A stretch of 64,000 nt of DNA, from positions 124,001 through 188,000 of the forward strand of contig CT868174.1 of assembly GCA_000165425.1 (NCBI GenBank). The letters run 5' to 3'. This document shows positions 31,781 to 36,921 of this stretch, one piece after another. The stretch's first letter is position 1. Every line of letters starts with the position of its first letter. The notes under the pieces are model-generated. The model did no database searches. It worked only from the letters and a program-made list of their open reading frames with translations, and was not told the origin of the DNA. The position numbers were made by a program, and so were the translations under genes. This DNA is from Paramecium tetraurelia. Taxonomy: Eukaryota.

Positions 31781-32001
31781 ATTTATTTAATAAAACCTTA
31801 GAATTAATCAATAATGATTCAGTCTGCATTTTTCATTCCATTTGTTATTTCCAATAAATGTTGACTTAAATCATAAATAGAATTTACATTTAATTGTAAT
31901 ATTAATACACCACCATCTAATAGTTTTACTATTATATAAATATGATTATAGTATTAAATGAAATTGCTATAAAAATTAAGCATATATACTAATACTATAA
32001 A

Positions 32002-34082
32002 TCATTTTTATTTAAGAATAACATCCAATCTTTTAGTTCTACAAAGTGCACATCCCAAGACATGTTCCTATCCAGTTGGCATATGATCAACACCTAATGG
32101 ACATTATTTTGGCCCAGGACAAGGTTTACTCATGTTCGGATTTCTTCCACTATGGCAAGTTTCACAATAATGGATTTTTCCTCTAAATTTAGATTAAATA
32201 AATACAAACAAAACCAAACAGCAACAGAACAACAGAATCTGCACTTAAATTCAACGTATCTATAACCGTGCTTATTACATTTAGCCTCAAAAGAGATAGG
32301 GCAGCACCCTGGGCATATTAAATCTTCTTTATTGAATTAGATTCTGCCATAGTTCTCTGCACCTGCTAAACTATTTTTGATTCCTCCAAAATAAGGTTTA
32401 ATGCATTTAAAGCATTCATAAAAACAAAATTTATCCATTGCAAATTCCTAAGGTTTTTAATAATACGAACTTTCAGGATCTCTTAATTCTTGTGCTTATT
32501 TCTTTCCTTCTATACCTAATCTTTCAATACACAATTCCTATATCTATTATTTGAATTATATAGCTTCATTTAATTTTAACTAAATCTTCTGATGCTTGAC
32601 ATTCAACCATTTCTTACATGAAGGACATGTACAATATTCAAACGAAATCCTAGGTCCATTCCATTTGGCATCTAATTTCTTCAAAATGCATTCTTCATGA
32701 AAAATATGACCGCATTCTGTTTTAATACAGGGAGCAAACTTTAAGGGTTCAGTAAAACAGATATTGCAATAGTCGTTTGGATCTTAATTAGAGCAAAGTA
32801 AACATAAGCATTCTTCTCCCTAGACTCCATTACAACTATGACCACAATCTAATGTATTTTGACATACTCTTTATATTCTCCTTTAACAATATTCTTTATT
32901 ACAGACTTTTCCTTCACAAGGGAAATCACAAAGAATGCATTTATTTGTATGTTAAATAGTCTTGTATAATTAACAAGTCATACCAATATGATATGGAACT
33001 GCTTTACATTCTCTACATTGTTCAGTCTTACATTATTCACAGATAAATCTATTATTACCATAATTAATCGATGCCTCACCACTGATATTTTTACTCTATT
33101 TACTTTCATCTAATTCTTTGGAACTACCCTTATCAAAGGATGATTGAAATTGGCATTTAATGCATTCAACTATATTTTAATTTTTAAGTGCTAATCTTTT
33201 ATCCAAATCATCAAACATATCAATTCCAAGTACTTCTTTTAGTTCAAATTGCCTCATCTAAGCATTGCATCCAATCTCCTTACACATAATTTTACCATTA
33301 TTTTCAATATAATCTTCTCTTGCCAATCGATGAATGCAAAATTTACACATGACATGTCCGCAATTCTCTAAGAACCATAATTTTCCAAAATCTTAATTAA
33401 AATAAAAGGGTTTTCTGCAAGCTTCACATGCTAGCTTTTGATCTTATTGTTGTAAACTATTAATTTTTGATTGTTCTTAAATTATACTTGTTGGATCACG
33501 AGTTGTCATATTATTTGAACTTTTATCATCTTCTAAAAGGCGAGGTGAGAAAAGTGAAGAAGAAGCTTTATTATTTTAACTCAGATCTCCTAAATCAATT
33601 TTAAATGGCTATTACACATTGGCTTTGTTTTTTGAACGAAATCTTAGCACAATACTATTTTATTTGACTTCAACATTGTTTTATTTGATTTGAGAACTGG
33701 AAGACAATTTATTAGATTGATCAAAAGTTAAGTCTGAAATTATTGGCAATATTTATTTTCTGTAGCCTCCTATAAAGCAATAATATTTTATTTTACTTCT
33801 GTTTAGAACAATTTCTATTCTTTCTACTTGTAATTTTAGATCGCATAAGAAAGTTACTAATTGTTCAATTGGTATTTCTTCAACATTTCCTCTTTTGTAC
33901 ATATTGCAGAGGGGACTGTCACTATTAAATTCTTAACAACAATCAATGTGTCGAATGATTTAACTCTCTTATTCTAATTCCTTTCTAAAAGAGCAAGGAC
34001 ACTCAAAGTACATATTCTGAACTATTAGTTATAAATTTAATACAATACACTTTATTGTTTTTAAATATTAATTTGCATACAT
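32002..34082 (-). CDS. multi-zinc-finger E3 ligase: RING/IBR-like modules + MYCBP2/PHR-type RING-Cys-relay (RCR) domain
   Basis: CNICFTEPLKFAPCIKTECGHIFHEECI..KWNGPRISF..CPSCK; YECFKCIKPYFGG; CNKHG..EFKCRFCCSVAVWFC; CPLGVDHMPTGQEHVLGCALCR. Confidence 0.9.
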
Positions 34083-34267
34083 TATTTATATATAATGCTT
34101 TTCTATATTATTTAGAAATCCAATGGTTCTAATTTACTTGCATGCTAACTAGTTTAGATTGAATAATAGATGGGACTACATGGTAAATGGGTGAAAATCT
34201 ACATATTTGCAATGTAAATATAAAGAATTATGAAAATGTTATATAATAATTTTCCTTAATAAAAATA

Positions 34268-34690
<423 letters not shown>

Positions 34691-34747
34691 TTTTAATATA
34701 AAAAATGTGACTCAAAAATTGGCACACAAAAAACATCGAACCTCTCA

Positions 34748-34760
34748 TTTGATTGGTGGA
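34748..34760 (-). promoter_or_regulatory. CCAAT box upstream of histone H3
   Basis: CCACCAATCAAA lies about 62 nt upstream of the H3 ATG, in the 89 nt divergent spacer. Confidence 0.4.
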
Positions 34761-34779
34761 TTTGGGATATATTATTTTA

Positions 34780-36921
34780 ATGAATTAAAACAAACAATAC
34801 AATCCTTATGCTCTGCCTCCAGATTTCAGTAATTACTCAATCCACAATTATGTTAGGTTTAGCCTAAGCTCATGCCAAGGCAAAATAAGTGGGATATTAG
34901 ACTCAAAATGAATAGGAATATTGTCCATGTTGCAATATGGCAATTAATAAAATACCGATTGGAGTCTGCGAGGACATCATCAGATTGCAGTTTTTAGGTA
35001 GATCCATTGATTGATTTTAGGCGAGGGAATCCCTTTATTCTTTCAATCAATCAAATTATATTCTATTCTATTACTACTAATCTTCGTTCTCGTCGGAATA
35101 TACAATATCATCACTACTTCTGACTTATGTTACAAGGAATATCATTTTAATTTGATGGATAGCCAAGAGAATGAAGAATAAGGATGTTACCATTTTATAG
35201 GAGTGGCATACACTGTAAATAAAACTGAATTGTAATTAACCATTCAGGCCGTCTTAGCATTCCTTGGAACATTCCTTGCGACAGGTGGCTTATTCTTAAT
35301 TAAATGGTTCTAATAAAGAAATCTTCATTACTCTATAAATAGTTCACCAAGTGATTTTACGATCTTATTAAGAAACTATCCTTACATTCATGAGAGACAC
35401 CAGATTGAATAATATTTTATGAAATACTTCAACATTAACCCAGCATCCATAGTTAAAATAATACGTCCTTTGAATATTTAAGATTACATGAATGATTAGA
35501 AGAAAAAGAATGAAAAGTTGAAAGAATAACAGAGAATCTATGCTTTGATGACACGACCATAAGAAGTCAGAGAGAAAAATGATATTTTAAATAAGTTAAT
35601 GCTTGAAATCTAAGTATTAGACAAATAGATTTCTCTATTTGAGTAATAAGTCACTCTCAATAATTTATATCAAAGAACTGATTATGTTTTAGTAACATTA
35701 TAAGAGGAAAATCTAGTTGATTAAATTCTAGACACATGTAACTAAAGTCGATGGTATGAAGTAATGATGGATTATCTTGGGTGTTGTGATAAATTGCTTT
35801 ATTATTTGAATAATGATAAATAGCAATGGAAGTTTATAAATGGATAAAGAATTTATATAAGAAGAGCACCTGAACCTTTAGATATAATTTGGTAAAATTT
35901 CAATACAAGTCATTCATAAAAAAGATGCAAAAGACTGTTGGCTTTAAGTTTAAACTTTCTAGTTGTTCTGGTAGGAGCCTTTGTTGTTTATGGAATTTCA
36001 TATACTCAAAATTAAGCAAAGAGTAGTGATTCATTTTATGTAAAATACGTTTTGTCAGGTTTGTGTGCTTTGGCAATTTTAATTATTAATCAAATTTTGG
36101 AGTTTCTGATTAAGATCACTTCAAAGTACGAGAAGCATACCACCTATACTAATGAAACCAGAAGTGTTATGGTAACATAAACCATAATGCAATTCATAAA
36201 TACAGCTCTTGTGCCTTTTGGATTATTTATATTTACTGATTTTGATTAGAATAATTTAGCTGTCAGTCTATTTTTTATATTTTTAGGCAATCTCATCATA
36301 TTGCCAGTATTAGAAATATTCGACCCATTATATATCATTAAATTAATCAAATAGAACCAAATCCTTAAGGAATAAGATAAAAGATAGATTATTCTTACTT
36401 AACAACAAACACATGAACTATTTGAGGGACCTGATTATAGAATAGCAGACAAATATTCTACTATTTTCAAAAGCATATTGATGAGTATGTTTTATGTATG
36501 CATATTTCCATATGGAATGATGATGTAGATAGTGTCATTGTTTCTATATTATTGGGCATGCAAATATACATTGTTAAGAAGATGTTCTTATCCCCCAACC
36601 ATAAATAGAAATTTAAATGATTCTACTCTCCAATTATTAGGAATATCACCAATTTTGATATCTGCTGGGTCAGCCTGTTATTCATTTCTATTGATTTAAA
36701 CTTACAGTAACCTAATTCTGCATATTATAAATATGATAATATCTTGTATTTGTGTTGGAAGTTATCTATATTTTAGATTTGAATCCAAGGTTACTCATAC
36801 GGAATCAGCTCTTTGTTTGAATTACTTTGAGGAGAGAAAAAAGTTTTCAACAGATTATGAGAAATGTAATCCAATTACAATGAAACAAGCACAATTTTAA
36901 TAACAGTACAAATTAGAATGA
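34780..36921 (+). CDS. OSCA/TMEM63 (CSC1)-like multipass channel
   Basis: PPDFSLAQAH..CPCC; GEGIPLFF; SPSDFTILLRN; RAPEPLDIIWQN; about 10 hydrophobic segments; YWACKYTLLRR. Confidence 0.8.

Follow-up and report, generated by a model that had tools for sequence, protein, structure and literature searches.

The window examined here is a stretch of 64,000 nucleotides from Paramecium tetraurelia (contig CT868174.1, positions 124,001 to 188,000 of the forward strand), which is AT-rich (25-34% GC) and reads with the ciliate genetic code (table 6). On its reverse strand lies GSPATT00010277001 (CAK74043; 32002..34013), a gene which, in the corrected model used here, encodes a protein of 653 amino acids after removal of two introns, the spliced frame being open to a TGA stop codon. 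The C-terminus of this protein is a RING-Cys-relay (RCR) module resembling that of the human ubiquitin ligase MYCBP2, in which Ser stands in place of the upstream relay Cys, and the module is preceded by a RING1-IBR pair of the type found in RBR ligases. The protein is referred to below as the Ser copy, and its Cys-bearing duplicate from the same species (GSPATT00033454001, P0011) as the twin. The gene product matches the database protein P0009 (P. tetraurelia GSPATT00010277001), and a preliminary description of this locus, confined to 32040..32780, had covered the 3' end of the gene. All features of the gene given here lie on the reverse strand, and residue numbers are those of the corrected model unless P0009 numbering is indicated.

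The database model P0009 starts 14 codons earlier than the orthologues and retains intron 1 as nine residues; the corrected start was chosen from the orthologues, whose proteins open with MYFEC. Intron 1 (33770..33796; 27 nucleotides, GTA..TAG) is coding in the database model and absent from the orthologues. Intron 2 (32183..32205; 23 nucleotides, GTA..TAG) interrupts the codon of Leu594, and its spliced form equals P0009. RNA contigs are shorter by 50 letters, the sum of 27 and 23, which supports the splicing of both introns, the match being read from this sum.

The RING of the RCR module (32604..32777, residues 404-461; alignment to 5o6c/6t7f and Pfam zf-RING) is followed by a helical linker (32430..32603, residues 462-519) and by a tandem-cysteine (TC) domain (32032..32429, residues 520-644, split by intron 2), so that the protein has the order RING, helical linker and zinc-binding TC domain of the RCR class. 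Alignment to human MYCBP2 (PDB 5o6c chain) gave an E-value of 1.8e-54, and the modelled residues 427-666 (P0009 numbering) matched 6t7f with a Z score of 19.0 and a root-mean-square deviation (rmsd) of 3.7 over 234 residues; the preliminary assignment of the C-terminus to the MYCBP2/PHR RCR module is thus upheld. The structure used was an AlphaFold model built from a 123-row alignment (mean predicted local distance difference test score, pLDDT, 79), an earlier 23-row model having been poor in the TC domain.

The human sequence YFGG-EAR-C aligned gap-free to YFGG-IKN-S of the Ser copy, within PYFGG-IKN-S, and Ser539 occupies the position of MYCBP2 C4520. Its codon, reported as AGT in the preliminary description, is indeed AGT (32370..32372, read at 32372-32370). 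In the 5o6c chain the relay Cys, the downstream Cys and the His are found at positions 143, 195 and 206, a spacing that fits C4520, C4572 and H4583. In human MYCBP2 the downstream Cys is C4572, the Glu of the catalytic triad is E4534 and the pocket for the methyl group of the acceptor Thr is lined by three Phe. C4520 is named in PMC12664034 and H4583 in PMC7615817. The mediator loop (32331..32381, about residues 536-552) is modelled with low confidence as a helix (residues 560-568 in P0009 numbering; pLDDT of the block 55), which holds the Ser. A Cys elsewhere in the loop might have stood in for the missing one, and none occurs between Cys528 and Cys558; all 17 Cys from residue 500 onward are also invariant across 21 Cys-bearing Paramecium homologues. 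Two Cys of the TC domain, Cys521 (32426-32424) and Cys562 (32303-32301), have no Cys counterpart in human MYCBP2 and are invariant in the aligned Paramecium homologues.

The downstream catalytic site is kept, in agreement with what had been noted for AVWFC and CETCH, two motifs that share one frame only once the 23-nucleotide GT..AG intron (32205-32183) is spliced out. By sequence alignment the Cys-His-acid triad is present as Cys593 (32208..32210), His604 (MYCBP2 H4583) and Asp555 (32322..32324), the last aligned to the human Glu; Asp is found in the twin too, and of the 148 family representatives defined below 87 have E and 41 have D at this position. The residues after the catalytic Cys read L-G-K-I-H-Y-C-E-T-C-H (32152..32182, ending with His604) in the Ser copy and G-G-T-T-H-Y-C-E-P-C-H in the twin.

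A sequencing error as the origin of the Ser codon was ruled out by contigs, by 31-mer runs and by the P. octaurelia orthologue (P0002), which has Ser too, together with an identical LGKIHYCETCH. A contig crossing the codon was obtained in four of the four runs compared, with AGT in each and no other letters, TGT included, these being assembled contigs and not raw reads. All 299 sampled 31-mers of 31900-34800 are contained in 15 of the 24 listed runs, eight of which (seven studies) are not flagged as a possible source of this DNA. The contigs of X7 (flagged as a possible source) and X16 are unspliced, and the contigs of X18 (recorded as RNA-seq) and X17 (presumed to be RNA) have 50 letters fewer and cross the codon. 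An intron that hides or removes the Ser codon was likewise rejected, as the spliced contigs cross it and only 50 letters are missing from them. In the RNA-type runs the contig of the twin was deeper (35.6 vs 16.4 and 45.2 vs 28.6), a depth that cannot rank the genes and was not used.

Among the relatives examined, conservation of the relay position outside this pair of orthologues is complete, and the alignment of orthologues and paralogues proposed in the preliminary description bears out the peculiarity of the Ser. All 21 other Paramecium homologues have Cys there, as do all 148 family representatives that remain when P0002 (Ser) and P0008 (Cys) are set aside from the top 150 of 3072 profile matches. 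Of 38 additional sequences examined, 30 cover the motif and each of these has Cys, and eight do not cover it. On these alignments, chance misalignment as the source of the Ser is ruled out by the family-wide Cys.

The preliminary description had also drawn attention to the aromatic pocket for the acceptor Thr, and this point holds in part. At the positions of the three human Phe the Ser copy has Leu, Tyr and Arg, as claimed, but the twin has Gly, Tyr and Arg; Tyr and Arg were therefore discarded as marks of a special variant, both being present in a Cys-bearing protein. The position of the Leu is Trp or Phe in 133 of 148 family members, and the third pocket Phe is F in only 9 of 142 relatives. 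Changes specific to the Ser copy are G594L, T596K, T597I and P602T, all four of which also occur in the P. octaurelia orthologue; residue 597, Ile in the Ser copy, is Thr in 131 of 148 relatives.

Upstream of the region described previously, and missed there, the protein contains further domains which make it a RING1-IBR-RCR protein, an architecture that is real. An RBR-type RING1-like domain (33252..33437, residues 184-245) scored 26.2 bits against Pfam zf-RING_UBOX (cut-off 25.2), and its model matched RING1 of HOIP (Z 8.5, rmsd 3.3, 81 residues). It is followed by RING1-IBR linker helices and an IBR-like domain (32949..33251, residues 246-346; Pfam IBR, E-value 5.9e-5), whose 23.5 bits fall just under the cut-off of 24.3. 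The modelled residues 205-369 aligned with HOIL-1 and RNF216 (Z 10.4, rmsd 9.4 and 7.8, respectively) and also with HOIP, ARIH2 and Parkin, with RBR chains taking ranks 3-34. The order RING1 then IBR, which is a feature of the RBR class, is thus present; no RBR catalytic Cys of a RING2/Rcat domain was identified, the RBR alignments stopping at about model residue 370. Between the IBR and the RCR RING is a Cys/His-rich region (32778..32948, residues 347-403) without a Pfam family, which is common to very long MYCBP2-like proteins; these long matches (2434-4673 amino acids) align from about profile position 300. As the loop is without Cys, the protein is classed as an RCR-fold protein and not as an active RCR ligase.

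The N-terminus carries a zinc-finger-like CxC...HxxxC motif and a helix (33765..34013, residues 1-74), with invariant Cys/His and only 2 differences in 74 residues to the P. octaurelia orthologue. No other part of the Ser copy is as well conserved as this CxC...HIDxC finger. It resembles a UBZ-type ubiquitin-binding finger, but no usable family was found for it in Pfam or Atlas, and none was assigned. A PHR-type N-terminus (RLD, PHR, FBD1) gave no Pfam matches, and the gene of 653 amino acids is bounded upstream by a histone H3 gene (34690-34268, reverse strand), which lies directly upstream and ends about 250 bases before the ligase start. Beyond the histone gene is a gene for an anoctamin/PHM7-like membrane protein (35011-36921, forward strand), and an adaptin gene (Adaptin_N; about 31800-29500, reverse strand) is located downstream.

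RING1, IBR and RCR occur together in all aligned Paramecium homologues and in 95 of the 148 representatives (P0029-P0176), and IBR with RCR in 131 of 148, as judged with profiles made from the same proteins. These counts are not family-wide frequencies, the query having favoured RING1-IBR-RCR proteins. Of the 20 best relatives that were scanned, 7 have an IBR above the Pfam cut-off, and RING1-IBR is absent from the longest, PHR-sized matches (2434-4673 amino acids). Among ten carriers or close matches looked up are proteins of Protostelium nocturnum and Moneuplotes crassus. In a family-wide unrooted tree, IBR-bearing and IBR-lacking proteins form several interleaved groups, from which no order of events is read. 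One relative with this architecture (P0039) has an N-terminal C2 domain (Pfam), which hints at membrane targeting in some members.

The twin has the same architecture and is about 71% identical to the Ser copy (189 of 644 sites differ). The Ser proteins of P. tetraurelia and P. octaurelia form a clade with support of 100/100 and a stem of 0.2, and their sister (93/99) is a P. pentaurelia protein (P0004) that keeps the relay Cys. The clade of the twin comprises proteins of P. tetraurelia, P. octaurelia, P. primaurelia and P. pentaurelia, all with Cys; two P. sonneborni copies do not take a settled place in the tree. Duplication within P. tetraurelia and duplication after the P. pentaurelia split were both rejected by approximately unbiased (AU) tests (p-AU 6e-46 and 2e-7, respectively). 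Because the tree and these tests reject a younger duplication, the pair predates the species splits and is old, and it probably derives from the recent whole-genome duplication. The contig of the twin showed only a 21-letter match beyond the gene. Loss of the relay Cys is placed by the tree before the split of P. tetraurelia and P. octaurelia. P0004 has changes of its own at conserved RING sites, for instance Tyr for the Pro of WNGPRI, which suggests that its catalytic half has been eroding independently.

Comparison of P. tetraurelia with P. octaurelia shows 77 differences over 643 sites for the Ser copies and 22 over 644 for the twins, a rate 3.5 times faster for the former; in the RCR module the differences are 30 of 241 and 3 of 241. 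Relative-rate tests found the Ser copies faster than the twins in three of four whole-length comparisons and in all four comparisons of the RCR module. With an amino-acid difference of 12%, the Ser copy shows no stop and no change at any of 59 invariant Cys/His, and among the 60 Cys/His that are invariant in the 21 other homologues the relay Cys is the only one changed. Neutral evolution was simulated at the genome-median synonymous divergence (dS) between the two species, 0.214 (PMC8354472, S6 Table): all 300 runs acquired a stop, on average 24 of the 59 Cys/His were changed (least 14) and the amino-acid difference reached 38%. Scaled to a difference of 12%, the simulation still altered 7-9 ligands, and about 95% of the runs acquired a stop. 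The ratio of nonsynonymous to synonymous divergence (dN/dS), roughly estimated from a grid of such simulations, was 0.27 for the Ser copy and 0.07 for the twin. The gene does not look like a pseudogene, as its frame is open, its contigs are spliced and its ligands are kept far beyond the neutral expectation. The Ser copy has been under purifying selection since the P. tetraurelia/P. octaurelia split.

This selection is unevenly distributed along the protein. In the N-terminal finger and RING1 the Ser copy has 4 differences in 136 residues and the twin 5 in 136, whereas from IBR to TC the counts are 55 of 398 and 6 of 399, i.e. about nine times faster in the Ser copy. By domain, Ser copy against twin, the differences are 2/62 vs 0/62 for RING1, 18/100 vs 2/101 for IBR, 6/58 vs 0/58 for the RCR RING and 14/125 vs 2/125 for TC. 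In three control pairs it is the N-terminal part that is faster, and the reversal seen in the Ser copy has a p value of 1e-5 (interaction). A scan of all split points gave p 0.006, with the best split at residue 281 (6/172 vs 53/362).

In MYCBP2 a RING-bound ubiquitin-conjugating enzyme (E2) passes ubiquitin to the loop Cys, from which it is relayed over about 24 Å to the downstream Cys (PMC9120709). There a Cys-His-Glu triad forms the ester with Thr or Ser, and the enzyme has no activity towards lysine (PMC9527308, PMC6769291). Mutation of the upstream Cys ablates both relay and esterification (PMC9120709), and work both in cells and in vitro uses human C4520S as the catalytically inactive form (PMC12664034). 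Since the upstream-Cys mutation abolishes the relay of MYCBP2, the Ser copy should be unable to run its own. Three readings had been offered in the preliminary description, namely a relay-dead pseudo-ligase, an oxyester-trapping variant and a ligase loaded by another route. The first is the best supported of these; the second found no support, and the third has lost ground through the fast divergence of the IBR and of the residues that directly follow the downstream Cys. With selection acting mostly on the finger and RING1, a pseudo-ligase kept for binding is likeliest, and we lean, by somewhat more than an even chance, towards a relay-dead pseudo-ligase retained for a non-catalytic role of its N-terminus. 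On this proposal, a RING1-IBR-RCR ligase was duplicated and one copy lost the relay Cys, the twin GSPATT00033454001 retaining the full machinery. The Ser copy would make no ubiquitin esters through its own relay and would be kept for the partners of its finger and RING1, which may be an E2 or E2~Ub, ubiquitin, a substrate or the twin itself. It could thus act as an adaptor or a competitor, its C-terminal half being retained presumably only as a folded scaffold. An inactive paralogue that regulates its active twin is known in TRIM51, which represses TRIM49 (PMC11992055).

Several observations tell against this proposal, or complicate its simplest form. The rates were derived with a genome-wide dS and with the annotated P. 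octaurelia protein, which has a gap of one residue, ends nine residues early and may conceal a stop. The grouping of domains was picked after seeing the data and was corrected only by the split scan. Even in RING1, the Ser copy departs from the Cys-bearing copies at 6 of 39 conserved sites. A similar imbalance, which also counts in favour of the proposal, is seen in the P. pentaurelia orthologue that still has the Cys (RING1 0/39, IBR 12/84, RING 7/52, TC 8/108); because this protein has changes of its own in IBR, RING and TC, relaxation of the catalytic half may have preceded the loss of the Cys. Relative-rate tests were positive in none of eight comparisons for the Cys-bearing P. pentaurelia and P. 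sonneborni counterparts, although tree and pairwise distances show these to be faster. The grouping of four changes behind Cys593 carries little weight, with p 0.016 when that window alone is considered and 0.56 when any window is allowed. Neither the cluster that contains the P. pentaurelia protein nor a set of 30 shorter matches yielded a P. primaurelia orthologue of the Ser copy, a search of one collection that does not amount to a demonstrated loss, and the Ser copy may therefore be dispensable. Finally, population data on Paramecium duplicates indicate that long retention is no sign of a new function (PMC9206413).

The last points lead to the less probable, though serious, alternative that the Ser copy is a redundant duplicate in slow decay, its Cys having been lost once its share of the activity was negligible, and that selection now does no more than purge misfolded or truncated products until the gene falls silent. 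Paramecium duplicates usually go this way, with asymmetric amino-acid rates preceding null alleles (PMC9206413, PMC10195154), and the faster rate of the Ser copy, further changes at conserved RING sites in the P. octaurelia protein, the eroding catalytic half of the P. pentaurelia orthologue and the missing P. primaurelia copy all fit it. A copy with no relay, however, adds nothing to a summed activity, yet its open frame and 59 ligands have been kept over a dS of 0.214, and decay does not predict a finger and RING1 as slow as those of the twin beside a remainder evolving nine times faster. The Ser itself needs no special explanation, as TGT to AGT is a single base change. An oxyester trap, in which Ser539 would take ubiquitin from the E2 and sequester or store it in a stable ester, is hardly credible even though the Ser coincides exactly with the acceptor position in a loop that is modelled as a helix: UBCH5-type E2s modify hydroxyls only with an activating base such as His (PMC7615817), the only known base belongs to the downstream site about 24 Å away (PMC9120709), and relaxation has reached the RING on which placement of the E2 would depend.

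An active ester ligase, in which Cys593 is loaded directly by an E2 held on RING1-IBR, or by the twin acting in trans through its relay Cys, and in which the acceptor pocket is remodelled, appears unlikely. Cys593, His604 and Asp555 are kept, RING1-IBR is the part of RBR ligases that delivers E2~Ub, and a relay from ligase to ligase has been proposed for LUBAC (PMC9527308). Keeping the three residues is weak evidence, because conserved sites other than Cys/His were changed at 64 of 349 positions and three residues would survive by chance with a probability of about 0.55. The four changes next to Cys593 likewise go back to the stem and do not differ between the two species (p 0.016 for this particular window), but such a cluster anywhere in the protein is common (p 0.56). 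The IBR and TC domains diverge fast, the Thr of 131 of 148 relatives is Ile, and a bypass of the loop through RING1-IBR should have freed other hybrids to lose the Cys, which none of 148 did. Its wider form, in which an RBR/RCR hybrid with two E2 entry points is widespread in microbial eukaryotes and the Ser copy would be a relay-independent ubiquitin ester ligase with a Leu-Gly-Lys-Ile pocket for a different acceptor, is equally improbable, although its lesser part, a real and undescribed RING1-IBR-RCR architecture, is far more probable. More doubtful still is reversion to an ordinary RING-type ligase, with RING1 or the RCR RING activating E2~Ub for direct transfer to lysine and no covalent intermediate. 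Both RING folds retain their ligands and RING1 is as slow as in the twin, but the RCR RING is relaxed, and RING1 of RBR ligases holds E2~Ub open rather than activating lysine transfer. The absence of lysine activity from MYCBP2 (PMC9527308, PMC12664034) also speaks against it.

That one of two Paramecium duplicates loses a catalytic residue is ordinary; it is the regionally split selection and the hybrid architecture that stand out. A natural, expressed and selected Cys-to-Ser copy with an intact twin forms a pair for studying an RCR protein without its relay and the loading of the downstream site, and the loss of the residue can be dated within the history of the duplicate and compared with dosage models of duplicate loss. 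The architecture may outweigh the single substitution, as it brings two ligase classes into one chain of 600-700 amino acids, which should be easier to study than the human enzyme of 510 kDa. Reviews name MYCBP2 as the sole RCR member (PMC9120709, PMC11503651), and MYCBP2 is not mentioned in PMC8586995 or PMC11354881. No natural relay-dead RCR and no RING1-IBR-RCR protein was found in the literature searched, which is limited evidence as most subscription journals and two primary RCR papers were outside its scope; we consider it rather probable that the RING1-IBR-RCR architecture is undescribed.

Compared with the RCR of MYCBP2 (5O6C, 6T7F), the Ser copy aligns end to end over RING, helical linker and TC and keeps the downstream Cys, His and acid. 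It differs in having Ser for the upstream Cys and Leu-Gly-Lys-Ile in place of Phe-Gly-Thr-Thr after the catalytic Cys, and in being a protein of 653 amino acids with a zinc finger and RING1-IBR instead of the giant PHR N-terminus. RBR ligases (HOIL-1, HOIP, RNF216, ARIH1/2 and Parkin) share the RING1-IBR of the model (best Z 10.4), whereas in the Ser copy an RCR module, and apparently no RING2/Rcat, follows the IBR. The closest likeness is to the twin and the other Paramecium RING1-IBR-RCR proteins, which have the same architecture; unlike the Ser copy, the twin keeps the relay Cys and GGTTHY, and its RCR is far more conserved (3/241 vs 30/241). The TRIM51/TRIM49 pair is similar in that an inactive paralogue is retained beside an active one, but in these RING pseudoligases activity was lost through the RING fold or the E2 interface and not through a catalytic Cys (PMC11992055).

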